Shown here one piece after another: positions 3,052-26,704 of a stretch of 64,000 nt of DNA. The notes below the pieces were generated by a model. That model did no database searches. It worked only from the letters and a program-made list of their open reading frames with translations, and had not been told where the DNA came from. The position numbers were made by a program, and so were the translations under genes. How positions within the stretch are numbered: the first letter of the stretch is position 1; the number at the start of each line of letters is the position of its first letter. Origin of the DNA: Craspedostauros australis (taxonomy: Eukaryota); assembly GCA_030167865.1 (NCBI GenBank), contig JALAGF010003865.1:1-64000 (forward strand). The letters run 5' to 3'.

Positions 3052-4041
3052 TCAGCTGACTTCCACCCACGACCGCTTCTCAGTTTCGTCCTTCTTGTGG
3101 TCCGGGATAGCGCCCAAGTAGCTGCATTCCTCTTCGTTCATGATACTGTACGGGACGAAGTCGGAGCCGTCTTCCGAGGGCGCCTTGACGAGACATCCGT
3201 GAGGATTCTTTCCTTCGTCCATGCTACCGACCAAGGCACCTCGGTTGAGCAGCCAGTTGCGGTAAGACAGGAAGCGGGCCCAGTTGAGAAGGAAAGCTAA
3301 AGGTAGGGAGAGGAGGACGACGACGAGGTAGACCTTGAGTCCCTTGGAGAAGTCGTCTCCACGATCGGCGATCACGTGCATCTGGTGCAGGATGTACAGT
3401 GGGGCCACCAGGGTGAAGAACACCCAGAAGATGGCTACCCACGAGATGAACGAGTTCTTGGTGTCCCGATCTCTGGTGGCGCTGAGGAGGTCGATCTCGA
3501 TGTCCATCTTGGATTGTCCCGACAGAGGCCGGCCGGGCAGGGTGAGGATGGTCGTCTTCTCGCGGGTGTAGCCTTGGTAGACTCGCACGCGTTTGCGCAC
3601 GGCGGTGCCGTCCTTGTGATCGGGATGTGGGTAGAGGGCGTAGCCGTAGTCGTTGAACCGTCCGCACATCCGCGAGGTGCGATCGAAGACGATGTCGCCG
3701 ACGCATTCCTGGCCTTCGTTGAGGTACCGGCCGATGAGATGGCGGCGTTTGGGCACGAAGAAGATCATGTAGACGCAGAAGAAGGTCCAGCACAGGAAGA
3801 TGCACAGGAAGACCGTCAGCATGTCCATGAGGCTGATGAGGTCGCCCGTCTCCGCGACGGCATTCTCCCACTGCGCGTCTGTGTAGCCATCGCCCAGGTT
3901 GTATATGGGTTCCTGCGGGCGCTTGTAGGCGGCGTAGAGAAAGTACACCAGGACGGCCAGCAGCGGCAGCGTCGTCAGTAGGAACTGGACCATCGATCCT
4001 CTGTCCACCTTCAGCAAGGTGTTGGGTTTGGTTCCGGTCAT
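3052..4041 (-). CDS. Uncharacterised multi-pass membrane protein (about 4 TM helices)
   Basis: 329-aa ORF with GC3-rich coding bias. Hydrophobic segments: FLLTTLPLLAVLVYFLY, MLTVFLCIFLCWTFFCVYMIFFV, WVAIFWVFFTLVAPLYIL, VYLVVVLLSLPLAFLL. Confidence 0.7.
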   Translation of the reverse strand: MTGTKPNTLLKVDRGSMVQFLLTTLPLLAVLVYFLYAAYKRPQEPIYNLGDGYTDAQWENAVAETGDLISLMDMLTVFLCIFLCWTFFCVYMIFFVPKRRHLIGRYLNEGQECVGDIVFDRTSRMCGRFNDYGYALYPHPDHKDGTAVRKRVRVYQGYTREKTTILTLPGRPLSGQSKMDIEIDLLSATRDRDTKNSFISWVAIFWVFFTLVAPLYILHQMHVIADRGDDFSKGLKVYLVVVLLSLPLAFLLNWARFLSYRNWLLNRGALVGSMDEGKNPHGCLVKAPSEDGSDFVPYSIMNEEECSYLGAIPDHKKDETEKRSWVEVS

Positions 4042-6979: not shown

Positions 6980-9900
6980 ATGAGACAAACACAAGGATCA
7001 CAGGTCGTCGTCCTCTTGGCCACCACCATGCTATTGTTGCAGGGAGGACGTCGACACTTCGTCAAAGGTTTCATCCCTCATGCAACAACAACCAGCAGAC
7101 ATGCCTTGTTGAGACGGAGCGGCCTGGCCACCACGCTCAATGCAAAGGGTACGTGGCTTCTTGCGATCTTTGGTTGCTGCTTGATGGCTGATTGGCAGTA
7201 TGTCCATGTCCATGTTCGAGCATGCATGCCCGTAGCCTGCTGCTATCCCATCTATCCATCGATCAATCTCTCCCCAGCTTCCCACTCTCCCATCGCTGAC
7301 ACCATTGCATCTCCCTATCTTCCAACTAATCGATCAATCAATCAATCAATCAACTGTTCATTCATTTGCTCGATGAAGGCAACGGCCGAGGAGGGAAGAA
7401 GCCGAAGAATCCCTTCGCTCCCACCATCACACTGCCAGAAACAGAATTCTCGCAACGTGCCAATGCCATCAAGCGAGAACCAGAGATCCACGCCTTCTGG
7501 AACGAGTACGGTCTCTATGACAAGCTTTCCAAAACCGCCGAGGAGGCCGGTGCCGATCGCTTCATTCTTCATGACGGTCCACCGTACGCCAATGGTGATC
7601 TGCACACGGGCCATGCCATGAACAAACTGCTCAAGGACTTCATCAACCGCAAGCAGATTCTCAATGGCAAGCAGGTCCACTACATCCCCGGCTGGGATTG
7701 CCACGGCCTGCCCATCGAACTCAAGGTGCTTCAGAAGATGAAATCCAAGGAACGCCAAGGCCTTTCCCCAATCGGTCTGCGTGAGAGGGCCGCTGCCTTT
7801 GCGAAGGAGACCGTCGAGAAGCAATCCAAGAGCTTCCAAAGGTACGGTGTGTACGGAGACTTCGAAAATCCCTACCTCACCCTCCAGCCCGAATTCGAAG
7901 CCGCTCAAATCCGTGTGTTTGGAGAAATGTTCCAGAAGGGACACATCTTCCGCGGGCGCAAGCCAGTGCACTGGTCTCCATCCTCGCGCACGGCGCTTGC
8001 CGAAGCCGAGCTGGAATACCCAGAAGGACACACTTCCAAGAGTATTTACGTCGCTTTCCCTATCGAAGAACCCAGCGAGGCGTTGAAGGAATTGCATGAC
8101 TCAGACAGCCCCGTTAGCGTGGCCATTTGGACGACAACCCCATGGACCATGCCAGGAAACCTGGCTGTTGCTATCAACCCTGATCTGTCATACTCCGTCG
8201 TCACCAGCGAAAAGACTGGGAAGATTGTTGTCGCGACCGATCTCATCGATGCCTTGAAGGTATGTGTTTGCGCTCGATCTTAAGTAATGATGCTGCTCTG
8301 TGATATGCCATCCGATCGTTCATTCTTGTCATCTTCGGCATTCGCCGATGCATTGGGGTGCACACGTCCCAAGCCATCCAGCCAGTCAAGCGTTCGCCCA
8401 CCGATTCACTGAATCACCAATTAACTCACCCGCGCACCCATTATTCTTGTATCATCCATCAATCGATTCATCGATTGCTCGCCACAGGCCAAGTTCGACT
8501 TTGAGGAAGGGCAGGAGTTCGAAATTCTCAAGACACTCCCAGGAGCCGATTTGGTTGGTGCCACCTACAGGCACCCCATGTACGGCAGAACATCTCCAGT
8601 TCTGGCGGGAGGAGACTACATCACCACCGAATCTGGAACTGGACTGGTGCACACAGCACCAGGACACGGTCAGGAGGATTACCAAACGGGACTCAAGAAC
8701 GGTCTGGAGCTTCTCAGCCCTGTCGACGACGCTGGAAAGTTCACCATCGAAGCCGGCGAGAACTTCGTCGGAATGAGTGTCCTCGGTGACGGGAACCAGG
8801 CCGTTATTGACAGCCTCACCGATCTCGGTGCTCTGCTCAAGGTTGAAGACTACGGACACAAGTATCCATACGATTGGCGCACCAAGAAACCAACCATCTT
8901 CCGTGCCACCGACCAGTGGTTCGCCAGCGTGGAAGGATTCAGAGACTCTGCCCTCGAGGCTATTGACACTGTGAGTTCACGTACATCATGTGCATCTGTT
9001 GGGATGGATGGATGTCGACGACAGCATTGACCGCTTGACGATACGATGTGTTGCGTCATGCACGACACGATACATCCCATCCCATCCAATTTCGCTGCAC
9101 ATTTTCTGTTTGCAAATGATGAAGAATTCAATATCCTGAGGGTCTGAATGCAGCATTACACGCTGCCTGATGTTTCAATTTGAAATCGAACTTTTTAACT
9201 CTGATGCAACCAGCAATAGCCTTGAGAAAAATGGCAGTGATACCATCTGTTGCAACAAAACCAACGGGTGGATCGATATACGCATGAGCGATGCCATATG
9301 GAATGCTCAAATCTATGGCCAACACACTCACATGAACACTTTCGCGTGCCTCTGTCTGCGAACTCGCTTGCTACGCGCTTACCGTCCAATCTTGACATTT
9401 AAATCGCACACGCGCACAAACCCGTGGATACGTCATAACAGGTTCAATGGATCCCAGAGGTTGGAAAGAACCGAATCACATCCTTCGTTTCTGGGCGCAA
9501 TGATTGGTGCATCTCCCGCCAGAGATCCTGGGGTGTGCCAATCCCAGTATTTTACGACAAGGAAACCGGAAAAGAAGTCCTGCTCGATGACGACACGCTG
9601 GATCATATCGTCAAGCTTTTCGAGGAACAGGGCAGCGATGCCTGGTGGAAGCTCGACGAGGAGGACCTCCTCCCAGACAAGTACAAGGGTGAGGCCGACA
9701 AGTGGCGCAAGGGAACCGACACCATGGATGTATGGTTCGATTCCGGATCCAGTTGGTCTGGTGTGGCCAGCGCACGCAAGGAGCTGCACTACCCAGCGGA
9801 TCTGTACCTCGAGGGAAGCGACCAGCACCGTGGATGGTTCCAAAGCAGTCTGCTGACCAGTGTCGCTGTCAATGAACAAGCGCCCTACAAGGCCGTCCTG

Positions 9901-11091
9901 ACACACGGCTTTGTCCTCGACGAGAAAGGTTTCAAGATGTCCAAGTCGCTCGGTAATGTCATCGATCCGATGGAGATCATCGAGGGTGGCAACAACAAAA
10001 AGAAGGACCCAGCCTACGGTGCTGACGTCCTCCGACTGTGGGTTGCCTCCGTGGACTACTCCGGAGATGTCGCCGTAGGACCAAACATCATCAAGCAAAC
10101 ATTCGAGGGCTACCGCAAGCTCCGAAACACTGCACGATACATCATTGGCAACCTTGCCGACTTCGAGCCAGCTTCCGCAGCTGGCAGCAACGCCATCGCG
10201 TACGAAGACTTGCCATCGCTCGACAAGTACATGCTTGGCCGTTTCAGCGAAGTCCTGAAGGAGGTTGACGAAGCTATGGACCAATACCAATTCCAGAGAG
10301 CGATCCAGGAATTGCTCCGATTCGCCTCCGCCGATCTTTCGAACTTCTACCTGGACGTTGCCAAGGACCGGCTGTACATTTCGTCGTTGGATGATCCAAG
10401 ACGGCGCAGTTGCCAGACCGTCCTCCAGATGGTGATTGAAGGCTTCGCCAAGGCAGTCTCTCCAATCCTGCCTCACATGGCCGAAGACATCTGGCAGAAT
10501 CTCCCCTTCGAGACATCCGGAAACAGCGTATTCGAAGGCGGATGGCCGAAGCACCTGGCCGAGTTCGACCTTTACGAATCCGAAAAGTGGGAACTCGTTC
10601 GCAACCTTCGAGACGATGTCAACAAGGTTCTGGAGCTTGCCCGCATCGACAAGCTCGTGGGCGCATCACTTGAGGCGTCCGCTTACGTGTACACCAGCGA
10701 CGACAAGGTGAAGGCGATCCTCCAATCGTTGGAGGGTGACGAGAGCCTCATCCATCCACCAGTGAAAACAAATGGTGTCGACGAATTTCGAACAGTCCTC
10801 ATGCTGTCCGGTGTCAAGATCGTCGATGACGTTGCCACCATCGAAGCAGAATGCGATGAGAAGTACATATCGACCACAGACACAGCCAGCGGTTGCACCG
10901 TCGGTGTCGCCAAGGCAAAAGGAAAGAAGTGCGAGAGGTGCTGGTTCTACGACACGCAGATAGGTGAGCAGGATCTTCCACATTCCGATGTCTGCCAACG
11001 TTGCAATGATGCCATCGCTGCGTGGGAAGAAGTCAACAGCGAGAAGTTCGTCAAGGCTGCGCCAGAGGAGCCAGTGGAGACAATGGCTTAA
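6980..11091 (+). CDS. ileS: Isoleucine--tRNA ligase, bacterial/organellar type; exons 6980-7148, 7379-8259, 8488-8970, 9442-11091
   Basis: LHDGPPYANGDLHTGH (HIGH), GWDCHGLPIE, WTTTPWT, GTGLVH, WCISRQR, EGSDQHRGWF, KMSKS, C-terminal CERCW...CQRC zinc finger. All three GT-AG introns are phase-compatible. Exon 1 is a signal peptide followed by VKG|FIP. Confidence 0.95.
9110..9209 (+). ncRNA. Intronic box C/D snoRNA, U36/snR47-like
   Basis: In IleRS intron 3. Stem TTGCA (9110-9114)/TGCAA (9205-9209), box C ATGATGA (9116-9122), box D CTGA (9201-9204). Guide CTTTTTAACT is antisense to conserved 18S AGUUAAAAAG. TATCCTGAGGG before CTGA 9144-9147 is antisense to conserved LSU CCCUCAGGAUA. Confidence 0.8.
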
Positions 11092-11197: not shown

Positions 11198-14100
11198 CTA
11201 GTCATTCCCACTGTCATCGCTCATGTCTTCGAAGAGATTGAGGTTGTCGGGGATCTTGCTCATGCTGAGGTTGATCTTGGCCGCGCCGCTTTTGGCCGCC
11301 GAATCCTTCTTCTTGCGTTTCTTCGGCTTTCCGTTCATCTGTTCTTCGACTGCGACCGCGAGATGCTCGAATTCGCCCCGATTCTCATCCGCCTTGTCCT
11401 TGACCAGCTGGTAGATTGCCGCTCCTTCCTCAGCAATCATCGACCCACTCCCTGCGACATTGTTTATGATTTCAAATGCACGGTTCAGCCATCAGAAGGA
11501 CAGAAGTTGTGGACGAGTCTGGTGAGAGGAAGAGCGGAGCGAGCACAAGTATCACACGGCCAAACGGCCACACACTCGCGCCCTCTCACTAATCGCACCA
11601 TCCAAGGTACCCATCCACCTCAATGAATAAAACGTGAAACTTCGCAGAACTTACCGTTGAACTTGAGCGCATTCGACTTCATCAGTTCGAAGTCTTTGAG
11701 GAAGGCATCGACAGTTCGGTACTCATACCTACAGAACGTCCAAGTTTCATGGTGTTGCAAGCAAATCAAATCGGAACCATGAAACGGGAGTGTGTTAGAA
11801 TTGCGTTGCGCACTGATAGTGAGTAACTGCATGCATGCATTGAAAGCGACATAATTATCCACATACATTCCGCAACAATTGTCGTGATCATTTTCTTCTT
11901 CATCAATAACCGCGGCATCAACAGCACCATCAATAGTAATGATAGAAGCAACAGATGCAGCGCGCGTTGAGAGACGTACTTCTGAATCCTGTCCCGAATG
12001 GTGGACAGGTCGATCGGATTGCTGATGACCTCGTAGTACTTGGGGATTTCTCTGCGGTTGACCGGTTTGACGAATGCACCGCTGCTCGGTCTGGATTCGA
12101 TCATGGATCGGATGCTTTCCAGACGGTCGGCCATGATCACATGCGGTCGTCTCTCGCGGATGGAACCTCGTTCCTTGCGATTGCTGGTCCCCTTGCGCTT
12201 CGACACTGCGGTGTAGAGTTCGGCCTCCTCTTCCTCTCGCCTGCGCTTCTTCATGCGCTGCTCCTTGGTAACCTTGTTCTTGAGCTTGCCGAATTGGAAT
12301 TCATTCTTTCGGGTCTTCGCGCCGGAACGGCCACGTCGACCACCTCTGCGTTTGAGGGCGTCCCTGCGCCCGCGTGTGTTGTATTCAAAATCGTCTTCAT
12401 CTTCGAACTGTGCATGCCCAACAAGCCTATCATCAGCCTGGTACTCAGGTCGTTCCTTTGGTTTCGGGGGTGCCTTCTCCTTGACTTGCTCGAGCCGTGC
12501 CATGATCTTTCCAACCTCGTCGGGTTTGACGATGAACTGGAACGTCGTTGTCTGGGTACCATCGGGGAAGGTCTTGGTCACCTTCTTTCTAATGACCTTC
12601 CTGTTGGCATACGACAATTTCATGTTTTCCGCCGGCGCCTTGGTGGACGACATGCCCTCACGAGCAGCGCGTTCCTCCTCTTGTTGGCGTTTCAACGCGG
12701 CGTACTCGCGGGCATCCTTGGTGAGATCCTGATCTTGAGCAGCGTTGCGCAGCCTGCCGAGGGACGCATCTCCGCCCATCCCGCCCTTATCGCGTGCCTG
12801 TGCCATCACCAGCTGATTCGCCTCGGGTCTGTCCATCATCTCCTCTTCCAAATCCGCGATGAAGTCGTCGTCTTCCGACTCGGAATCGGACTCTTCCTTG
12901 CTTTCATTCTTTTGTTGCTGGGCGGTCTTCGGGGCTGCGTCGTCCGCCTCGCCAGCACCGCCGACGCCGTCTCCACCGACGGCTCGTCCATCGATGGCAT
13001 CGGCCATGGAAAGCGCGGCCACCTGACGCTTCCAGATGATCTTGATACGGTCACGGTACATCTGCTTCTGCTCCGACAGCTTCATCTTTTCACCACGAGC
13101 AAATCGCTCCAGTCCGTCGCTCATGCCGTCGGAGGCGTTCTTGGTCGAAAGGTCACGGATGACGTGCACGCGATCCCATCGCTTCAGCGTGTCGATCTTC
13201 TTCTGCACCATGCCGTACGATCGTAGAATCCTTGCCATCTGGTTCATCGTCAGCTTACGGAGATCATCGTCGGTTCCCGTGATCTTCTTCATCTGCGCTG
13301 TCTGGGCGGCCGCACCCGCTCCGAGCGATTTGCTTGGCTTGGAATTGACTTCGCGGAGGAAATTGAATGCATCACCAACTCCGCTGGGGTCTCCCATGCC
13401 GGTGAGCTTCATCATTCCAGTTCCTTCTCCCTTCTTGTGCACATCGATGAATTCGCCCGTGATGTGCCACGAGGCCAGTTGCAGCTCCTCGTAAATGAAC
13501 TTGGCCACCTCGTGTTTCTGGCGGATCGTCTTGGAGAACGTGTCTAGATCGGCCGCGACCCTTTCGTAGAAGTTGAGTTGAAGGTTCTGGATGTGCTTGG
13601 CGGACTTGCTGGCCTCATGGAGCTTCTTGAATTTGCGCGCGAGTTCCTTAGCCGCATTCACCTGACCTGCGAGGTAAATCATCGCGACGCCGACGCTGCT
13701 GGTGGCGTGAGACCCGGCAAAGAGCTGGTGGATGCCCAGATCGTTCAACCGACGCACGGTCGCGGATGCCACCTCGAATGCCGCCACGCCTTCTGCTGGG
13801 ATCTGTTTGCCGAGGGCGTCCACGCCTGGATAATCATCCACGCCCGTCGGTTTGCTGGTCCAAATCTGCGTGTTCTTGTCGTACGTCGCCACGAGCTTTA
13901 GACGCTGACGGATGCTGTTGCTCTGGAGTCCCAAATTCGGCAGGACCGAGTGTTGGATTTCATCGAAACGCAGGCCGTGGCCTTCCCTGGATTCTGCTCG
14001 GGACAGGGCCTTGGCGATCTGGTAAGACACGAAGGGACCCACAAAGTTCTTCTCACCTTGCGTGTTGGGTGCGTACACACGGGCGCGCGGCTCCGTCTGG

Positions 14101-16169
14101 CCGACCGTGAAGACGCTGGAGGGGAGTTCGCGAAGGACGACGCCCAAGGACTCGTGACGGCCTGGCATGGACACGCCAGAGTTGCGTCCCAGGATCATGA
14201 GAAAATCTGTCTGCTCCGGTTCATGGCCAAACAGCGGAGCGACAAAGAGATTGCTGATCAATCCAGTGACTGCCTGGCCGTGCTCGATTTCGCCGATGAA
14301 AGGTCCGTGGACCTTGGGATGCAGGATCTCCGTGATACCCTCGGGCAGCACGTTGATCCCGGCATTCTCGTTGCGTTCCTCCCTCGTCTTTTTCGGTATC
14401 TTTCCCACCCACTCCTTCATCGTGGTGGCCGTGAGAGCGTGGTCGGGACCGACGAGCTTGGGCAAGGAATCGAACTTGTTCTGGTTGCTGGATTCGTCCT
14501 TGGTCGTCTTGGACTCCGTGCCGGGTCGCTTGCGTCGAACGGGCCGATCGCCTCCTCCGGCCGACACGGGACATCTCGACTTGTCCCCTCGGTAGTAGGT
14601 CACGATCTTGCTGGACATGCCCTTCGTCATTTGGATGGGCGGCCTTTCCTCGGAGAACTCCAAGAGGATGAGGTTGCCCTCCGTGGGTGACAAGTCGGCC
14701 TCCGTCCGCAGCTTGGCCTTGCTGACTGCGCCAGGGTGCGTCCCCATCATCATGGCTTGGTAGCTGGATGAATTCTCGCCGCCTTGCCCGGTCGTGCTCA
14801 TCTTGCTCTTGGAGACGGTGTTGCCGTTGTAACGGATTTGGAATTGCCAGATCAAGGTGGTGCGCACGATGGCCATGGGGAGCTTGGGTCTGTGGTACTG
14901 CCGCAGCGAGACCTTGGAGAGGTCACGGAAGAGCACGTGATTGGACACCATGTCGAGCTGTTCGATGTACTCGGTGTCATGGATGGCGTTGCCCACGTGC
15001 CTGGAGGGACGGCCTGTGCGTTCCGTACCTCCGGGTCCCATCAGGGAACTGGTGATGGTGCGTCCCTTACCGCTTCCAAGCACGCCGAGCGTGCCCAAGG
15101 CGTCCTTGACACGATCCGTCTTGTCCTTGGCCATCTGACGACGCTTTGCCTGCTGCTGCGCGATGAAGCGCGCCATCTTTTCCCTGTCCGTCTGCAAGGA
15201 GCGGCTGTTGAGTTCGGCGGTCGTGACGTCGCTCTTCCAGTTGGCTTGGATGCGGTTTTGATACTCCTCCGATTTGACGGCTGGCAGAGGACGGTGCGAT
15301 GGCAGCAGTTGCTTGGAGACAGAACGCCCGGCGACGCCCAATTCCAGAACCAGAGGTTGGTTCTTGATGCGTTCCATGGCGTCGGCTCTGGAACCGGACC
15401 AGCTGATCATGCTTTCCAGAGTCCCGGATATGTCTTCAAGGAACGGGTTGCGCTTCTTCGCCAGCAGGTCCTGCGGGTCGATTCTGTTGATCAGCACTTC
15501 GTCGGCGGATTGACGCTGCTGCTGCAGCTGGCTCTGTGTTTGATTCTGCCCTTGAGTTGCTGCCTGCGATGCTGGTGCATCGGGCTTCTTGTATCCGTCC
15601 CATTCGATCTTGTTCTCCCAGTCGCTGAGCTCCACCTGATGGAACTTGGATGGGATGCGCAGCACGTGGGTGGGTTGTTTGTAGGGACGCTGCGGTTTGA
15701 GAAAGCTTCTCTTGCTTTTGCCGTTGGTGCCGTCTTCACCGTCTTCGGAATTGTCAGATGTCTCCTTCCTCGTGACCGCGGCCGCTTCGTCCTCCTCGTT
15801 TGCATTGTCCGCCGACTTGAAGTGCTGCTGATGAATGGGTGTCTTTGAGACAAGCTGCATGACAAGACGGATGGTCTCTTCATCCGCTTCGCTCTTCTTT
15901 TGGTTGCGACTCGTCGCGTCCGTCTGCGATGCCTTGCCATCCCGATCGCCGTTCTTGCCGCCGTTGAGGGAATCGTCGTCATCATCGTCGTCGTGATCAT
16001 CATCATCATCGCTGAGGTTGCTGGTGTCCTTGGGCGGATCATGCCGATGGGCCTTGTTGCTGCGCTTCAGCACATCGCGGGGGATGACTCGCGAGAGGTT
16101 GGCCGGTCTGAAGCCACGCGTCAGCAATCCCTCGAAGTCGATCTGCGGCGCTGACAAGGATGACGCCAT
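11198..16169 (-). CDS. TAF1: Transcription initiation factor TFIID subunit 1; exons 16169-11980, 11728-11655, 11451-11198
   Basis: TAF1 core motifs YHRPKL, EFSEERPP..KGMSSKIVTYYR, SNLFVAP, TDFLMI, GQTEP, EELQLASW, LTGMGDPSGVG, ITGTDDDLRKL, RWDRV. A C-terminal bromodomain (FVKPVNRREIPKYYEVISNPIDL...NALKFNG) is completed by two phase-compatible introns. Confidence 0.93.
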
Positions 16170-16431: not shown

Positions 16432-16856
16432 TGCACACCTCGGACACGCCGCTTCCAAGTCCGCCCAATCCTCTATTCTTTCATTCCTGGTGGCCAAACC
16501 CACACCGAATGAGAGATGTTGAGTGGGCGAGTATTGGGGTGTCTCCTTGTGTTTCTTTGTTGTTGTTGTTGTCGTTGTCACCACATCGTCGAGAAACACG
16601 CCAAGAACACCAGCGAACTGAATCACGAACACAATCACGAATCACAATGAGGTGACACGTTTGGGATGGAGAGACCGCGCCAATGTCTGGAGACACGCAC
16701 ATGCTGGCTGCTCATCGTATGTACCAATACCTATAATACCTATGCTACCGATAATACCATACGGCTATTAGGAGACCGTACTATGCTTCCGCGAACGCTC
16801 ATGCATACTCGTATGCGTAGAGCGTGTTGCAATGATTGCCCATCGAGATCCCGTGC

Positions 16857-17795
16857 TCATTCTGCCGCGTTATCAACGGCATCCGCCGGAGCGTTGTCCA
16901 GGCTCTGGTTGAGCTCCTCGATGGTGCGCTCCTGCATCTCGTGGATGTTGTTGAGCTGCTCCAGCTTGGACTCCGTCTCCTCGAGCTCGTTTTCCAGATC
17001 GGCGATGCTCGTGGTGACGGATGCGCTGGCCTTCTCCTTGAGGCGTTCCAGCTCCTTCTGGTTGTCCTGTATGCGATCGTCGTACTCGGTCTGCATCTCC
17101 GCCTTCTGCTCCTCCAGCAACTCCAGCTGCTTGCGCAGCTCGAGCTCGGTGCGACAGCGGTCCTCGACGATGTCGGAGATCTCCTTCTTGAGGGAGTTGA
17201 CCACCTCCTCGCAGGATTGCTCGACCTGCGCCATCTGATGGGCCGTGGCGTCCATCTTCTTGACGGCCTTGGCGAGCTGCGACTGGAGCTTCATGACGTA
17301 CTGCGAGTCGACACCGCCCTTTGGTGCCACGCCCTTGATGAGGTTGGCGTACTCGTGGATGGCGTCCTTGTCGTGCATGTCCTTCTCCAATGCCTCGAGA
17401 CGCTCCTCGACGGCCTTGGTCTGGCGCTTGAGACGCTCGACCTCGATGCGGTGCAGGATGGCCTCCTTCATCTGTCGCAGGCGCTCCTCCTCGAGCTCCT
17501 TCTGCAGGGCCGAAAGTTCCTGATGCTTCTCGAGCCTCGTCTTTTCCAGACTGGAGATGCTGGCGTCGCGGGCACGCACTTGCTTCTCCAGATCGCCACG
17601 TTCTCCGTCGTCCTCTTCTTCCACCAGCGCGGGATCGGCGATGGGGGATGTCGGGATGTCGACGTTTGGTGCCGACTGCGGTGTGGGCGACGGCATTCCG
17701 CCTCCGGCAGCGGCCTCGTTTTCGCCGTTGGCTGGGCCGTCATCGTTTGCGGCGCCGCCGCCCTGCGATTCGTTCCTTCGGAATCGGGCAAACAT
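16857..17795 (-). CDS. Uncharacterised acidic coiled-coil protein (paralogue A)
   Basis: About 312 aa from ATG 17795, strong coding bias, heptad-rich. Shares the DSxYVMxxQxQLxKA motif with the gene at 19333. Confidence 0.85.
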   Translation of the reverse strand: MFARFRRNESQGGGAANDDGPANGENEAAAGGGMPSPTPQSAPNVDIPTSPIADPALVEEEDDGERGDLEKQVRARDASISSLEKTRLEKHQELSALQKELEEERLRQMKEAILHRIEVERLKRQTKAVEERLEALEKDMHDKDAIHEYANLIKGVAPKGGVDSQYVMKLQSQLAKAVKKMDATAHQMAQVEQSCEEVVNSLKKEISDIVEDRCRTELELRKQLELLEEQKAEMQTEYDDRIQDNQKELERLKEKASASVTTSIADLENELEETESKLEQLNNIHEMQERTIEELNQSLDNAPADAVDNAAE

Positions 17796-18964
17796 CTTTC
17801 TCAATGGGTCTTTCTGGTGGCACTGTTTCTGTTTTCTGTTCGCTGTTGTTGCAATTGTTGTGACGAATGCTGGTGTATTGGTGGCTCGTACCGATGTGGT
17901 ATTGTGCTTGCACTATTATATATGTCGTTGTTGGCGTTGTCGTTGTCGTTGTCGTCGTTGTCGTTGGTGGTTGTGAATTGATTGAATGCCTGACGAGTTG
18001 GCTGGCTGACTCCCTTGTCGGCGCCGATACGATACTCCTGTCACCCCTCTGTTCCAAAGTGCGCAAGTATATTCCGTCGCGTTCCGGAATGATGGTTGGT
18101 GGTTGATGTCGAAGATGATGATCGATGATGACTCGGAGAGGGCCAACAGAGAGGGAGGAGAGAGGCAGATGGTTCAGTGCGAACACCAAATTCAGCCGCT
18201 GAGTATCTTCGTCTCCCGCGACAACAACGGCAGTAGCGACGACAGCAACAACAGCAACAAAAGCAAGGAAGGAGTCACAGCACCAACGGCAAGAACGGCA
18301 AGAACGCCAAGAACGACAGCGACGATGAAAACAGCGGCAGAATTCGGACGTTTGTTGTGGCGGGAGGAGAAGCCAAAATGCCAGTCATTCCCGTGAGGCA
18401 CGTTTGAGATCGTGATTGAACTCTTTTTTGGGGATCTGCAAGACTCAACTGCCAAAAAAGCAAAAATCGTGACTGGTTTTCCCATGGATCGTCGCGAGAA
18501 ACTTGTGCCGCTGTCCGGAACGCAAAACCCATTCACCATCCGACAGGATTGCGTCGATGTCGAGAGATCTCTGGAGAGAGTCGTCAGGAAGAGAAAGAGA
18601 CGTGGATGATGCTGTGGTAACTGCATCGTCGACAAAACAATCAGCAGCAACAGCGACAGCAGCAGCAGCAGCAAGGAACGGCAATCGTATTACAAACAGC
18701 AGCAATCACAGCGAAGGACGCGGCAACAACCGATACGTCCCATTTGCAGGACCAGCTTGACCATTGGACTTGCGAACCGGAGCGTGAAGGATCACCATTT
18801 GCAATCGAATCGAATCGAGGTGAATCGAATTGGATAGCTTGGGAGAGTGTACTCGAGATTGGAGCAGCACTACTCTACAATACACACAACCGTACCAGAA
18901 AGTCCATTACGTTCGGCACCTCATCAAGTCCAGCATCAGGTTCAGATTCAGCTTCAGTGCAACG

Positions 18965-19000
18965 ACCAATCCAACAACCAATCCAACAACCAATCCAGCA
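18965..19000 (+). repeat. 12-bp tandem repeat (ACCAATCCAACA)x3 containing CCAAT
   Basis: Read directly; third copy has one mismatch. Lies between the divergent coiled-coil genes. Confidence 0.8.
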
Positions 19001-19332
19001 AGTACCCAAGTTGTGAGCGTTCCCCAAACTTCGCAACATCATCCACTCTGCGGATACTCGAAGGCGCTTCGCACTTGGCCTGCAACATCCCAGTGGTACA
19101 ATAGTTCAATTCATGACTGTTCATCGCAGCCATCGACATCGGCTCGTTCAATCAGACACATCCACCTTGTACCGCTCCGCGTACTCGCACACGACTACTC
19201 GATAGCATTACACCATACAAAAAACAACAGCGAAGAGCACTCCACCTGAGTTGACTCATCCTGCGACAGTCACAACCACAATCACGGCTACTGCCACAGC
19301 TATTTCGACATCTGTCATTCGAGTATATCACC

Positions 19333-20208
19333 ATGGAGGAAGAACTGCTGAGGGAAATGATCCGCGACCGCGATGCCCAGATCACGCTCATCCAGCGCAA
19401 GGTCGAGGACTCCGACAAGAAGACTGCCCGGTTCACCAGCGAACTCAACGAGCTGCGCGCCGAACGCACGCAGACGAAGGGCGAACTGGAGAAGGAACGG
19501 GAGCAGCTGCTGCGACGGTACCGCAAGCTCGTGGAGGAGCACAGCCAGCAGAAGGATCAGATGGACATGAAGAAGCAGCAGGCGCAGGCGCAGGGGACCA
19601 CGCTGCATGCCTACACGGAGGTCATGAAGACCGTGGCGACGCCCGAATCCAGGGACTCGTCCTACGTCATGCGCATGCAGGCGCAGCTATGCAAGGCGAT
19701 GCACAGCATGGGGATGATCGAGAATCAGCTGGCGATGACCAACAAGCACGCGGATCAGATACAAAAGTTCCTCAAGGAATGCAACACGGGAATGGTGGAG
19801 GAGAAGTCGCAGGTGGAGCTCAAGCTCATGAACGATCTCGTCATCCAGGACAACGAGCGGCGAGAGATCGAGACCAAGCACAAGGGCATGATGGAGACCT
19901 TCTGGTCGGAGAAGGATGCGCTGGAGCAGAAGATCGAGGATGCGCAGAACAGGAATGCCAACAGCGACGACGAAGATGAAGAGGACGATGAGGAAGAACG
20001 CGAAGAGCTCATGGAGATATTAACGCAGGGTCAGGAGGAGATTGAACGCATGCAGGCGGAGGTCGCAAAGAAGATACAGCAGATCAAGGACCTCAAGGTC
20101 AAGGCCGGCGACGATTCGCCCGATATTGATTACGAGCAGTTAGCTGCTGCGGCCAGCGCGGGAAATGACGACAGCGATGCCAGCGACGACAGCGACGATG
20201 ACGATTAG
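19333..20208 (+). CDS. Uncharacterised acidic coiled-coil protein (paralogue B)
   Basis: 291-aa ATG ORF with caccATGG context, heptad-rich, acidic tail, motif DSSYVMRMQAQLCKA. Confidence 0.88.
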   Translation: MEEELLREMIRDRDAQITLIQRKVEDSDKKTARFTSELNELRAERTQTKGELEKEREQLLRRYRKLVEEHSQQKDQMDMKKQQAQAQGTTLHAYTEVMKTVATPESRDSSYVMRMQAQLCKAMHSMGMIENQLAMTNKHADQIQKFLKECNTGMVEEKSQVELKLMNDLVIQDNERREIETKHKGMMETFWSEKDALEQKIEDAQNRNANSDDEDEEDDEEEREELMEILTQGQEEIERMQAEVAKKIQQIKDLKVKAGDDSPDIDYEQLAAAASAGNDDSDASDDSDDDD

Positions 20209-20870
20209 AGGAGCCTGGTGGCAAGGGAGTGACTGGAATGACGGACGGACGAATTTGCCGATCATGCAATGCCCTACACATCACATTCTGCCATGTCAAG
20301 CATTCTTGTGCCCCTCGTTTTTCAACTCTCCGTATCAATGGTGCCATTACGATGATGTGTGATGGTTGTAGTACCATAGGTAGTACAACTAAGTGCCACT
20401 CTTGAAGCCCCGGCAATTAATATCTTTGGAGTATGTGGTCAACAACACTTGCGGTACACAGCACTATCGACCTCAGAGACTAAAATTGTGTTGTCGATGT
20501 TCACATCAAACAGCGCGTAATACATCAGCTCGTCGCATAAGAGGACGGAAAAGCAGCAACAGGGCACCACGTGCCGAACACTGAATCATGGCATCTTGGA
20601 GTGCCATGCAATGTGCGATGGGCAAGCTGCGTTTTGCTTTGGCCCGCAACCGCATGCTCTGAAGACGAGAATCTGCGACAACCATGACATCACGCGAGCA
20701 AAGTACGAATTTAGTGATATTCAACTACGAGTGCTACGTATGTTGTGAGATGCAGCGACTTGCGACAGCCGTTGCAACCTCCCAATCATGATTGCATGAC
20801 AAGGCCCTGCGGGTTGATTGATCCTTTGATCCTTTGACCCGACTCTACGTCGCAGGCACAAGTGCACAAT

Positions 20871-22684
20871 TTACTCATCTTCGTCGAAGCCAACCGTCTC
20901 GACCTTCATGGTTGCGTCGACCTGTTGATACTCCGCCATGATGCCGCGGATCTGCGCTCTCATCTGTCGCTGCGATCGTTGCCATTGGATGATGCCGATA
21001 CACGCAAGGCAGACTGTGAGGCCGACCAAGGACGTGACGAAGACAGGGGTGGACACGGAATTGGAAGGCTCCTCGACTAGGCTCTCGGCGCATTCTTCCG
21101 TCTTGATGCATTCCAGAACATCGCGGCAGTACCGGCAGGTCTTGCAAACAGCCGGTTGGGAGGAGTCTGGGAATGCAGCGCAGATGGCCTCGAAGGTTTC
21201 TGCCGTGGTGAATGCGCCTCTCAGCGGCGTCTTGTTGACGTAGAACGAGGGCAGGACGATGACTCCCGTGGCCTCCTTCTGGGCGAGCTCGGATTCCACG
21301 ATTTTATTCTCCACGTTGCCCTCGAAGCCGCCTGAATCTTCCATGCAGGCCTGGATCCTGGAAGGGCTGACACCTGCCGCTGACATGGCATCCTTGATGC
21401 ACTCCTCGTTCGTGAAGTGCTTGTCGTTGCATCTGTAGAGAAACTCCTCGACGTACAGCCACCATTCCAACCCCATGCCGTCCTTGCCGTACTCGTCCCA
21501 AATACAAAGACGACGCACACTCTCCTCCACCACATCGACGCCCGTCACACCGCCGTTGATGCTGTCAGGGTCCATGAGGCAGTAACGTCCGCTGTTGGTG
21601 CACAAAGTGGAGCACTGGTTGGTCTGTTCGTATGTCTGGCATCCGGCCTTGATGCCATCGAACATGTACATATGCGGCGTGAAGGTCGCGTGTCCCTTGA
21701 GGGCCTTGACGACGTGGCGGAAATCACGCATGAGAGGACGGCTGGTGTCGTCTGTGGGTGTGGACCAGATTTCGTACTCGACCGTGTCGCCCTCCTGCGG
21801 CAAGCTCCATGCCATTTTCGCGCGGACGCTCTGGTTGTCCAGCAGGACCTTCTTGATGGGATCGGCCTCCTGCTTGAAGACGAGGAAGGCTGGGATTTGG
21901 ATGTCAGCCCCAGATCCATCATCGGCCATGATGGGTTCCGAGGTTTCGCATTTGTCGTCGGGGTCGTCCATGATGCACTTGCCCGCCGCAGCGCACAGGC
22001 ATTTGTCGTCGGCGATGAGCACCGCGGAAGCGCCTGCCCGTTGGGCGTTGCGCACCTTCTTGACGAAGCTGCAATCTCCGCGATCCACCATCATGATGAA
22101 CGGCGCCTGCATGCGGATCATCTGTCCATCGTCCGCCTGTGGTCTTTGTGGATAACCGCCACGGGAGTAATCGATTTTGAGATCGCACATTGTTTCGTCA
22201 GCGTAGTACACCGTTGCCTCGATGCTCTTGCCGTACGGCGGGTCGCCGAACAGCGCTTCCATGTGCTCGTACCCACCTTCCTTCTTCAGCGACGGTGGGA
22301 TCTATTCCGTTATATTATATTGTATTTTGCAGTATTCGTTGGTATGGAAGGGTAAGGGTAATGGTGTGGTAATGGGCGTATCATCGCGTTGGAACCATAC
22401 CGTGCCACGTTTAGTGATTGTGTTGCGGATAGAGCAGAGCAGTGGATGGTTAAAGAGTAATATCATATTTTATGAATGTACGTGCGTATGGTTAGAAGTG
22501 CATCAACGAGGTCGACGATAACAGCACATACAGAGGCTGTTCGTTCATCCGCATAGCTCGTACTCCAGAGAGCGGATCGCACGCATGTCGCTTCTTGTCT
22601 ACATCCTCGGTGATGTTGGAGGTCCCAAGGACATTTGATGGTGCTGCTGCTGCTGTGGCCAAGGATTCGTCATGCTTGCCCAAG

Positions 22685-24197: not shown

Positions 24198-26704
24198 ATG
24201 ATGCTGCGCTTGACCATCGCAGCGATGGCTGCCGCCGCCGCATCCGCCGACAGCAAGCTGATGATTCATGTGAGTCCATGACGATGCGTTTGCATGCGTG
24301 TTCGTGGGATCTGGGATGAACGCGAGGAGGCCAAAAAGATTTCTGCGCGACTATCACCACGATGGTGGTGTTTGGACCAGAAGAATTGACGGAGCCGTGC
24401 AGCGCATGAACAGGATGAGGCCACGCAGAGGGAGATCGCTTTCATTTGGAAAATATCTGGAATGGGCGCCACGCTGCGCCATGGTTCTGATCGAAGTGAA
24501 GGTCATGAGGGTGGACATCATGGCCTCCCTCCCGCTCTGAAAGGAAGCCCGACGACTGGCAACGATGCCAGCACAGCCACGATTGCTAGAAGCCTCGATG
24601 TGGTGGCCCAAATCAAAGGCAGCGGCGTAGATGCCGATGTCAAATCTTGCTGATTTGCCGCTGCGCACAGACCCGACATGCCGGCACGACAACCTGCTCC
24701 GCGCGATCTCTCCATGACTCTGCTGTCGAATTCAAACTGGAGCTCAAACCGAACCAAACCAGAGTCCGTTCACTCACATCTTCCTCCGTCTCTCTCTCTC
24801 TCTTTGGCTGCTGTGTTTCTCTGCTTACTCATGGTACTGCCATGACGACCTTCGACACCCACGCAATTCATCAACGCAAAATACGCACGCGTCATTCCGC
24901 CTCTCCAATCGACCGATCGATCAATCCAACAATCGAAACACATGCAACATCTTGGTTGCGCATTGTAGGTCCCACAAAGCATGGACAAGCCAGGCGGCTA
25001 CGAGCACCGAGAGGCCCTTTTTGGAAAGCCACCCTACGGCAATTCCATCTCGCAGAACGTGATCTACTCCGATTCTACCCTTTGCGATGCGGACTTCGAC
25101 ACCACAAAGGGCTACCCAGAAATCGAGCTGGACAATGAGTTCCACTCCTGGAACCCGCCATTCATTCTGATGGTGGACCGTGGGGACTGTACATTCGTTA
25201 GGAAGGTACGTGTCCCCTATGCGTTGGCTTTCTTGTCATCATCGCTCTGGTTGCATGTATGCATGCAGATATGCCAAGCTGGTTGGCCAGTCAGTCTTTG
25301 CCTGTATTGTCTGTATGCGCACCAACCCAACTGCCGTGGTTTCCGTGTACTCACTTCGTTGTCTTTGACTTTCCATCCTTCGATCTCCAATGTCGGATAT
25401 CTTATGTAATTCCAACACACATGTACTTGTATCATCATTCGCTTCTTGGTTCATGACGACAGGTCCGCCACGCACAAATGGCAGGTGCTTCCGGTGTCGT
25501 TATCGCGGACCACAAATGCTTGTGCAGCGACGAAGCTTGCAAGAAAGAGTACGGCAGCGACGACTGCGAGGGGAACGAACCCATCATGGCAGACGACGGA
25601 TCTGGTGGTGGCATCACCATCCCTGCGTTCCTCATGACCCGAACAGATGCCGACAAGGTGAAGGTGCAGCTCAAAGACAACCATCCAGTGAAGATGGAGA
25701 TGAAGTGGAATCTACCATCGGCCGAAGACCGTGTCGAATACGAGCTCTGGTCCGTCCCAGCAGATCCAGTCAGCCGCGAGTTCCTCGTCGAATTCAAGAA
25801 CATCGCGGAGAAGTTTGGAAAGAAGGCGCAGCTCACGCCCCGCATGTACATCTTTGACGGGTTGAGAACGCATTGCCAATCGCAGGACGGAGAAAACTAC
25901 TGTGCCAACCTCTGCACGAACAACGGCCGCTACTGCGCGACTGACCCAGACGACGACCTCGACAGAGGTATTTCAGGTGCGGACGTGGTGACCGAATCCC
26001 TCCGACGACTTTGTATCTGGGATCATTACGGAAAGGACGACGGCGTCGGTCAGCCATGGTGGGCGTACGTTGCCGAGTTCGACAAGCGTTGCACCCGCAA
26101 GAACTTCTTCACCAGAGAGGAATGCATCCAGGATGTCTACGACCATTCCGGCATCGACAAGGAAAAGATCGACAGATGCATGTCCAACAGCGGGGGGCTG
26201 GTTGGTGATGGCGCCAACACCTTCCTCGAGGAGGAGCTTGGCATGCAGCGAAGACGAGGTGTCGTCGTGCTGCCAACGGCGTTCGTGAACACTGCTCCAC
26301 TCCGTGGCGAGCTCACCGCTTCCAACGTATTCAACGCCATCTGCGCTGGATTCTCTGAAAGCACCAGCCCAGAGATCTGCAGCCAGTGCAGTGGATGCAA
26401 CAACGTCACCACGTGCTTGTCGAATGGATACTGCGAAGATTCAACGCCTGTGATCCCGAAGTCGAAGGGAAGTTCCGGCGGCGTGTCCCACCACTCCTTT
26501 GCTTTCACCATGATTGTGATCATTGCCGCATTCTCGGGCGCTGGATTCTGGTACCACAACAAGACCCGACAGGACATGAGAGACCAAGTCCGCGGCATAC
26601 TGTCGGACTACATGCCGCTGGATGATCCCGAAGGCGCACAGCAAACCGGAGGCGCCCCAATGGCCTTCGCGCAACAGGGTGGAACCCAATCTCTCATCGG
26701 GTAA
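24198..26704 (+). CDS. VSR: Vacuolar sorting receptor-like protein, copy 2; exons 24198-24269, 24969-25205, 25463-26704
   Basis: Signal peptide MMLRLTIAAMAAAAASA. ALFGKPPYG, MVDRGDCTFVRKVRHAQ, CTNNGRYCATDPD, TM helix, tail VRGILSDYMPL (YMPL is the plant VSR sorting motif). Both introns are phase 0. Confidence 0.92.

Follow-up and report, generated by a model that had tools for sequence, protein, structure and literature searches.

Our analyses support the view that two divergently transcribed genes of Craspedostauros australis, here termed A and B, belong to a large unnamed family of coiled-coil proteins which, as far as sequence searches reach, is apparently diatom-wide. Our best explanation of the pair, which is offered tentatively, is that A and B constitute an anciently duplicated, pair of linked genes for rod-shaped scaffold or adaptor proteins that would be dimeric and are built on a conserved three-helix module, most likely assembled as an A:B heterodimer.

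Diatoms carry out about one fifth of global photosynthesis, and for many of the genes that they conserve no function has been assigned. A and its linked, fast-evolving paralogue B are good candidates for tagging or knockout in model diatoms, the former because its rod of 236 residues is 90-92% identical between genera, a level of identity which, to our knowledge, is usual only where the whole protein surface is in use.

The locus and the collinearity of A and B

The window analysed is a stretch of 64,000 nucleotides (assembly GCA_030167865.1, contig JALAGF010003865.1, positions 1 to 64,000 of the forward strand). Gene A (16857..17795, minus strand) is a single-exon open reading frame (ORF) of 312 aa and gene B (19333..20208, plus strand) a single-exon ORF of 291 aa, in agreement with an earlier note on this DNA that had described two divergent genes for proteins of about 300 aa lying some 1.5 kb apart. 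The spacer between the two start codons (17796..19332) measures 1,537 bp and is a candidate for a promoter region, whether shared or adjacent. Short tandem repeats abound in it, the ORFs within it are all of low complexity, and no convincing gene was found there in the ORF list. The sole Rfam match in the spacer, an S15 leader, scored 22.3 bits where the gathering score is 39.5 and was rejected as a chance hit.

Contig records from one public sequencing run, presumed by guess to be of RNA, matched the window at both genes. The first corresponds to positions 16710-17285 with zero differences from the window, placing a probable 3' untranslated region (UTR) of A (16710..16856, minus strand), downstream of its stop codon, on the same contig as part of the A ORF. 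The second to fourth records tile positions 19125-20442 with no differences and no joints, covering a probable 5' UTR of B (19125..19332, plus strand) upstream of its start codon and extending downstream of B to 20442. Positions 17286-19124 have no cover by contigs of this run, which proves nothing.

A and B were aligned by BLASTP with compositional adjustment over 180 aa at 28% identity (E 4e-14). The Smith-Waterman score of the two rods was 224, a value reached by none of 1000 global shuffles (mean 75.9, sd 10.9) and by none of 1000 shuffles that kept the composition of each heptad position (mean 79.2, sd 11.2), and hhalign matched the alignment of the A family to that of the B family over 247 columns with a probability of 99.9% (E 1.7e-33). 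By these sequence comparisons the similarity is far above chance, and A and B are collinear homologues, as the earlier note had proposed. The block on which that proposal was based is indeed ungapped (A146-220 against B91-165), but it comprises 75 residues with 25 identities instead of the 79 and 26 that had been counted by hand. The beginnings of the two rods (VRARDASI in A and IRDRDAQI in B) and the DSxYVMxxQxQL motif were likewise found in register in the two proteins.

At least one further genus retains the linkage of the two genes: in Cylindrotheca closterium both A (CAJ1942372.1) and B (CAJ1942370.1) occur on one contig of 1,285,377 bp, their accessions two apart and one accession number falling between them. 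Furthermore, the A and B matches report longest contigs of identical length (3415, 6765, 23657 and 3072 bp), which suggests, indirectly, that A and B are on shared contigs in these cases too. A similar coincidence at 2641 bp seems doubtful, given identities there of 72% for A and 55% for B. One metagenome scan returned five short contigs (1.0-2.3 kb) that carry A but no separate B gene.

Family, architecture and central module

Contrary to what had been supposed earlier, neither gene is an orphan. At E<=1e-3, A has 286 relatives (52-93% identical among the 120 listed) and B has 163, and a profile search retrieved 401 representative clusters at this threshold, 222 of them at E<=1e-10 and 95 at E<=1e-30. 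Of the 13 organism labels seen on the relatives, 12 are diatoms, pennate and centric both; labels on B-type sequences are pennate and Thalassiosirales, those on A proper are pennate only, and an Odontella protein sits in the wider A clade. No relatives were found in two scans of prokaryote genome contigs and one of viral contigs. Full-length orthologues of A of the same size were found on contigs of about 1 kb.

Three well-supported clades were recovered: A-like, B-like, and a long form of 560-860 aa in which 300-600 further residues of coiled coil follow the common N-terminal unit. In an IQ-TREE analysis of 46 sequences, UFBoot support was 100 for the wide A clade, 93 for the wide B clade and 100 for the third clade, and in a fast tree run SH-aLRT values were 99.8 for the wide A clade and 100 for the third; the split between the first two bears out the suggestion that A and B are paralogues of deep divergence. 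A proper is uniform, whereas the B-like clade has diversified much further, splitting into many sub-clades with proteins of 228-622 aa. A strict regular expression for the motif under-counts the B type (34 of 120), many of which have L, I or T instead of M. No Pfam family reached its cut-off in any member scanned, and none of 35 long or divergent members scanned contained a domain of known activity. Our literature searches found no description of the family, although supplementary tables of diatom proteomics and transcriptomics could name orthologues by other gene identifiers.

The AlphaFold2 monomer models of A (pLDDT 82) and B (pLDDT 84) have in common a pattern of helix, break and long helix. 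That of A begins with a Pro/Gly-rich head that is disordered (residues 1-63), followed by coil 1 (64-141), a helix (143-156), the loop APKGGVD (157-163) and a helix of residues 164-301. B begins its rod from the first residues (MEEELL..MIRDRD), with no head before coil 1, and is modelled as coil 1 (2-101), a TP break (102-103), helices at 104-211 and 219-257, and an acidic tail; the aligned B-type sequences have a common ME..LL start at the N-terminus, a few of them with extra residues ahead of it. The loop of A and the break of B fit the Pro-containing non-helical linker that the first reading of the sequence had described. An acidic insert in B (residues ~206-222, SDDEDEEDDEEE.., 19948..19998, plus strand) is absent from A, varies in length among the aligned B relatives, and falls below a pLDDT of 50 over residues 212-218. 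With net charges of -29 and -30 the two proteins are strongly acidic, neither has a basic head, and a direct reading of the sequences revealed no signal-peptide-like hydrophobic N-terminus in either. The hydrophobic period of A164-301 has its spectral peak at about 3.57-3.58 (power 115, compared with 1.6 at exactly 3.5). An unbroken heptad coil of the tropomyosin type was considered and rejected on account of this period of about 3.58, the helix breaks at A157-163 and B102-103, and the absence of a Pfam tropomyosin match.

The central module of A (residues 142-205; 17181..17372, minus strand) consists of a short helix, a Pro/Gly loop and the DSQYVMKLQSQLAKAVKKM helix, and constitutes the signature of the family; its counterpart in B (residues 87-150, ..LHAYTEVMKTVATPESRDSSYVMRMQAQLCKAMHSMG.., 19591..19782, plus strand) is the best-conserved part of that protein, with a mean identity of 65.4% compared with 39.3% for coil 1. 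The mean identity of the module of A to six orthologues is 97.4%. Across 30 A and B sequences, Y149, Y166, Q171, Q173, L174 and K176 (A numbering) are invariant, and across 48 B-type sequences so are Y94, Q116, Q118, L119, C120, M123 and H124 of B. Among the polar positions of the module, D, S, Y, Q, Q and K are invariant or nearly so in A and B alike, a conservation that a generic coiled coil does not require.

The two proteins evolve at very different rates. In six sources where the B rod is 47-56% identical to its orthologues, that of A is 90-92% identical, a divergence of 44-53% against 8-10% and a six-fold difference, and every rod segment of A is 85-97% conserved. A gap of this size is at odds with the simple view that A and B are halves of a single rod under equal constraint.

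Possible pairing, independence or filament assembly

The family is characterised by an N-terminal unit that spans about 190 residues and is made up of coil 1 with its 'RD..I..L' start, the short helix, the Pro/Gly loop and the helix starting DSxYVxxLQxQLxKA. The parts that follow are variable, a short coil in A and, in B, the acidic insert, a coil and the acidic tail. Both proteins are predicted to be cytoplasmic elongated dimers, in which the conserved three-helix module, and not the generic coils, would be the site of specific pairing or partner binding. A would act as a tightly constrained core subunit with contacts along its whole rod, and B as a fast-evolving, acidic-tailed partner or variant with only the module in common. 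To judge from architecture alone, the role is probably that of a scaffold or adaptor of the cytoskeleton or of vesicles, not of a filament.

Heterodimerisation of A and B is plausible, if unproven, and we infer that an A:B dimer held by the module and its flanking coils is the most likely arrangement. It is also quite possible that A and B are independent homodimers derived from an old inverted tandem duplication and serving separate roles, A as a highly constrained structural or adaptor rod and B as a rapidly diversifying acidic-tailed relative, so that their adjacency would be a relic, or reflect shared regulation only, and imply no pairing. Such independence would accord with the contrast in rod identity between A and B, with conservation in B being concentrated in the N-terminal start and central module, with the much greater diversification of the B-like clade than of A proper, and with the third clade, which shows that members can bear very different C-terminal parts; moreover, UDS1 of A. 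nidulans, the one protein with a possibly related domain that has been studied by experiment, is homodimeric (PMC9213775). The six-fold asymmetry of rates argues against A and B as halves of a uniformly packed rod and fits independent functions equally well. On the other side stand the adjacency, kept in C. closterium and probably on four more contigs, and the invariant residues of the module, which are identical in A and B and so are compatible with a mixed interface. A crude count of g-e' pairs over coil 2a (attractive/repulsive) gave 2/2 for AA, 0/4 for BB and 3/2 for AB; the BB value speaks weakly against a B homodimer, and AB is not clearly favoured. A broader proposal, which we consider improbable, is that A, B and the long proteins of the third clade form a diatom-specific heteromeric cytoskeletal or membrane-skeleton system, unrelated to known eukaryotic families, with the near-invariant A as the core and variable partners joined through the module. 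It could serve a process confined to diatoms, for example the shaping of valves at the silica deposition vesicle or cytokinesis of the diatom type.

Two readings would instead assign the pair to a known class of proteins. The earlier note had suggested an intermediate-filament-like (IF-like) protein, and in its full form, an obligate A:B heterodimer polymerising into lineage-specific cytoskeletal filaments, this is very improbable. The layout of head, rod with linker and tail, and a paralogous pair that recalls the type I/II keratins, speak for it, the near-invariant rod of A would fit lateral packing over the whole surface in a filament, and weak matches to Pfam Filament were found in two of 41 A-type members at E<=0.01. 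However, none of 48 B-type members matched at that threshold, and A itself scores 17.8 bits on this profile (PF00038), for which the cut-off is 40, and the alignment pairs its residues 174-299 with profile positions 30-151 of 313, out of register with coil 2 of IF proteins. The IF rod has about 310 residues and carries LNDR and TYRKLLEGE-type end motifs; the rod modelled for A has only about 238 (A64-301) and that for B spans B2-257, direct reading revealed neither LNDR- nor TYRKLLEGE- (LLEGE-)type motifs in A or B, the hydrophobic period of coil 2 is close to 3.57, the power at exactly 3.5 being low, and the acidic character of both proteins is contrary to the basic heads of IF proteins. A remote relationship with the fungal Uds1 domain (PF15456), with the family acting like A. 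nidulans UDS1, a rod-shaped dimer that binds RAB11-GTP and helps to link myosin V to secretory vesicles, is unlikely but merits more weight. Uds1 is the sole recurring Pfam family: at E<=0.01 it was found in 12 of the 41 A-type members of the alignment, and at E<=0.05 in 7 of the 16 A-type proteins that were scanned again. Its matches lie in a constant register on the family's own module (residues ~109-199 against profile positions 16-111 of 123) and take in most of the profile, and the best of them, in the orthologue P0087, scores 27.1 bits (E 5.3e-6). The gathering score of 28.8 bits is, however, reached by no protein; A of the window scores 21.5 bits (residues 113-202, which include most of its module), its B has no match, and no Uds1 match at E<=0.01 was found among 48 B-type and 26 divergent members. 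The A-type proteins that match share 60-90% identity among themselves and hence amount to roughly one observation, and HMM scores are inflated by coiled-coil periodicity. A protein atlas look-up of the module returned assorted coiled-coil families with Uds1 absent, and neither UDS1 nor JANUS-1 occurs in the 10 best-ranked of 594 literature matches, all of which pair 'diatom' with 'stramenopile'. In favour of the link, the matched stretch of A (113-202) runs in the monomer model from the last part of helix 64-141 through the short helix 143-156 into the first part of helix 164-301, and the long proteins of the third clade have the domain followed by a long coil, in the same order as UDS1. By analogy, a role in polarised exocytosis, cytokinesis or cell-wall deposition would be relevant in diatoms. 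If the link is true, a vesicle-adaptor module of RAB11 and myosin V so far described only in fungi extends to stramenopiles, pointing to polarised secretion; if it is false, the family is a lineage-specific structural invention.

Comparison with known rod-shaped proteins

Structural and sequence comparisons of the proteins returned generic coiled coils. A Foldseek search of the PDB with the model of A gave one match (E 8.6), and VIA-align, run with the same model on 48,161 chains, retrieved nothing but generic long helices (Z<=8.1), within the stated background. Sequence searches of the PDB reached at best E 0.038 for the single sequence; for the profile the best match (E 0.0024) was to a leucine zipper of 40 residues. 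Protein atlas look-ups returned only assorted coiled-coil clusters with scores of 0.92-0.94. The long helices so retrieved included motor adaptors, Rab effectors and golgins (BICDR1, NudEL, Sec2, HOOK, Spindly and Rabaptin; Z 7-8.1), which resemble the model in being long single helices with a break. They have no family-specific motif in common with A and B and no sequence match, and scores of this kind are typical of unrelated long helices.

The keratins of type I and type II constitute paralogous partner pairs of IF proteins. With them A and B have in common the order of head, rod and tail, a non-helical linker within the rod and the occurrence of paralogous partners, but A and B have a shorter rod, lack the IF end motifs and carry acidic instead of basic heads.

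The Uds1 proteins (A. nidulans UDS1, S. pombe Uds1 and N. crassa JANUS-1) and the diatom family are both rod-shaped and largely coiled coil, with a disordered N-terminus, and in both, for the diatom proteins as modelled, a short multi-helix domain breaks the coil and is followed by a long helix. A. nidulans UDS1 is described as a homodimer (PMC9213775) in which each UDS1 domain is built of three small helices and leads into a long coiled coil of parallel strands; the dimeric state of A and B is itself predicted. UDS1 has 941 aa, compared with about 300 aa for the diatom A and B, and the binding of RAB11 and myosin V is a feature of UDS1 which, for A and B, is by analogy putative at most.

Two linked homologous genes and their surroundings

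The divergently oriented coiled-coil genes A and B are linked and stem from an ancient duplication within a diatom family of helical rods with a conserved helix-loop-helix module, in which A is nearly invariant and B fast-evolving. A (P0001; 16857..17795, minus strand) and B (P0002; 19333..20208, plus strand) are uninterrupted ORFs of 312 and 291 aa, respectively, with 1,537 bp between their facing start codons. From one public run, whose RNA nature is an automatic guess only, contigs tile both 16710-17285 and 19125-20442, showing neither differences nor joints, and in the covered parts UTR-like margins are continuous with both ORFs. A tblastn search found no third copy in the window.

BLASTP with compositional adjustment aligned A69-238 with B6-183 at 28% identity (E 4e-14). 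The Smith-Waterman score between the two rods (224) was reached by none of 1000 shuffles (means 76 and 79, sd 11) whether B was shuffled globally or within heptad positions, the latter as a control for coiled-coil periodicity, and alignment of the A-family and B-family profiles gave 99.9% probability over 247 columns (E 1.7e-33). Judged from these sequence comparisons the similarity is real, in agreement with the homology claimed in an earlier note. The block cited there does exist without gaps, although it spans 75 residues with 25 identities (A146-220 versus B91-165) instead of the 79 and 26 counted by hand.

Short tandem repeats abound in the spacer, their periods being 3, 9 and 12 bases (17923-17966, 18285-18315, 18642-18673 and 18960-19001); in one of them, some 330 bp ahead of the start codon of B, CAACAACCAATC is repeated 3.5 times. 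A is flanked by a TAF1-like gene (11766..16169, minus strand) with DUF3591 and a bromodomain, and B by a vacuolar-sorting-receptor-like gene (20871..22262, minus strand); no functional link of these neighbours to A or B is evident. The TAF1-like ORF encodes the first half of the bromodomain and passes directly into a hydrophobic low-complexity tail, where it stops; this break within the domain suggests an intron, with the remaining bromodomain in a downstream exon. A paralogue of the receptor-like gene lies in opposite orientation about 3 kb away (25478-26704, plus strand); a VSR thioredoxin-like domain is common to the two, and the gene at 20871..22262 has a PA domain as well. Of a class I aminoacyl-tRNA synthetase, the ORF at 9724-11091 (plus strand) encodes no more than the C-terminal part, comprising the end of tRNA-synt_1 and the anticodon-binding domain; it probably represents the final exon of a larger gene.

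Extent, clades and linkage of the family

At E<=1e-3, A has 286 relatives (52-93% identity among the 120 matches listed) and B has 163, while a search profile combining 13 A-type with 17 B-type sequences retrieved 401 representative clusters at the same threshold, 222 at <=1e-10 and 95 at <=1e-30. The two genes are thus not the orphans they had been taken for. The family is unnamed and was not found in the literature searched, nor did the prokaryote genomes and viral contigs scanned contain any relative.

Diatoms account for 12 of the 13 organism labels, and a wider range is possible as most cluster representatives carry no label. A-type labels comprise Nitzschia sp., Pseudo-nitzschia multistriata, Cyclophora tenuis, Cylindrotheca closterium and Odontella aurita, the last with a divergent A-like protein; B-type labels comprise Nitzschia inconspicua, C. 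closterium, C. fusiformis, a Bacillariaceae MAG, Entomoneis, Gedaniella, Conticribra weissflogii and Thalassiosira profunda. The thirteenth label, a transcriptome of the ciliate Tiarina fusa, includes an A and a B copy (P0242, P0125); this transcriptome probably contains diatom RNA, since the A copy falls in the 90%-identity cluster of the C. closterium protein. Nitzschia inconspicua has two B copies (P0165, P0259; IV203_002021, IV203_035681) of at least 90% identity on two contigs each larger than 6 Mb, as would fit a genome that is duplicated or hybrid.

Phylogenetic trees inferred from the conserved core recovered three well-supported groups, bootstrap values being obtained from 46 of the 101 core sequences, picked to span clades. 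Support for the A-like clade was UFBoot 100, SH-aLRT 99.8 and FastTree 0.95, and for a third clade, whose proteins are long (560-860 aa), it was 100, 100 and 1.0. The B-like group is large and diversified (UFBoot 93), and its members did not come together as a clade when all 101 sequences were placed in a fast, midpoint-rooted tree. Third-clade members (P0322, P0323, P0342, P0346 and P0358) open with the N-terminal unit also present in A and B, in which a coil and a loop lead into a DSxYVLHLQSQLSKSMQTM helix. Several hundred more residues of helix or coiled coil follow, and none of these five contains a Pfam domain. The split between A and B is deep, given that B-type labels include both pennates and Thalassiosirales and that the Odontella protein lies inside the A-like clade.

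Linkage extends to C. closterium, in which the orthologues of A (CAJ1942372.1) and B (CAJ1942370.1) are near-neighbours on one 1,285,377-bp contig, their accession numbers two apart with one model between. Elsewhere, the longest contigs of A and B matches, mostly from the same source, coincide in size at 3415, 6765, 23657 and 3072 bp, which suggests that both genes reside together on contigs ranging from 3 to 24 kb; a fifth match in length, at 2641 bp, is doubtful on identity grounds.

Anatomy and unequal constraint of the rods

AlphaFold2 monomer models were confident along the helices (pLDDT 82 for A, 84 for B). In A, a disordered head (1-63) precedes a helix (64-141), a short helix (143-156), a loop (157-163, APKGGVD) and a long helix (164-301); B consists of a helix (2-101), a TP break (102-103), a helix (104-211), a disordered acidic insert, a helix (219-257) and an acidic tail. 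Net charges of -29 and -30 make the two proteins strongly acidic. In the long helix, hydrophobic residues recur with a period of about 3.57 and, over the full length, there is almost no power at exactly 3.5; this helix is therefore not a plain heptad zipper. Six positions are invariant across 30 A-type and B-type sequences (Y149, Y166, Q171, Q173, L174 and K176 in A numbering), all grouped around the loop in the module (A142-205, B87-150), and they are polar, specific residues rather than generic core positions.

In six sources with both genes, rod identity to orthologues is 90-92% for A versus 47-56% for B. Mean identities for A and B are 92.5% and 39% in coil 1, 97.4% and 65% in the central module, 88.5% and 57% in coil 2a, and 85.4% and 52% in coil 2b; the head, exclusive to A, averages 23%, and the acidic insert, exclusive to B, 36%. 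Constraint acts across the whole surface of A, and in B mainly on the module and the first residues.

Possible functions and relation to known families

A lineage-specific family of dimeric coiled-coil rods is, as a kind of thing, neither categorically new nor surprising. The near-frozen A rod, its kept pairing with a fast-evolving paralogue and a possible connection to Uds1 (PF15456, a fungal domain family) make it a good experimental target.

A and B may function as elongated cytoplasmic dimers, a location inferred from neither having a signal-peptide-like N-terminus, with the module rather than generic coils providing the specific contact surface. The kept adjacency and the invariant module residues common to both are most economically explained by an A:B dimer, and we tentatively propose a heterodimeric scaffold or adaptor, at slightly under even confidence. 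The rate asymmetry, however, fits separate homodimers about as well, and these are a possible, if somewhat improbable, alternative. Assembly into an intermediate-filament-like system, also put forward in the earlier note, is very improbable, as score, register, rod length and motifs all fail to match those of intermediate filaments.

No Pfam family reached its cut-off in A, B or 35 long or divergent relatives. Uds1 was the sole recurrent lead: at E<=0.01 it matched 12 of the 41 A-type members of the alignment, and at E<=0.05 it matched 7 of 16 A-type proteins that were scanned again, in a constant register (profile positions 16-111 of 123) falling on the module of the diatom family. All scores lie under the 28.8-bit cut-off (best 27.1 bits; 21.5 for A of the window), and no match occurred in 48 B-type or 26 divergent members. 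Furthermore, the matching proteins are closely related among themselves, and coiled coils inflate HMM scores. True homology to Uds1 is doubtful, and a Uds1-like RAB11/myosin adaptor, which could be either heterodimeric or homodimeric, is an unlikely but appreciable prospect. As described in PMC9213775 and PMC13546919, Aspergillus nidulans UDS1 is a rod-shaped coiled-coil dimer of 941 residues that binds RAB11-GTP directly and joins HMSV and myosin V in the HUM complex on secretory vesicles, while its S. pombe homologue localizes to the contractile ring. In the AlphaFold dimer model described there, the UDS1 domain consists of three small helices, which make up a V-shaped wing alongside a long parallel coiled coil; as far as that description goes, the diatom family resembles UDS1 both in its three helices and in the order of domain followed by long coil.
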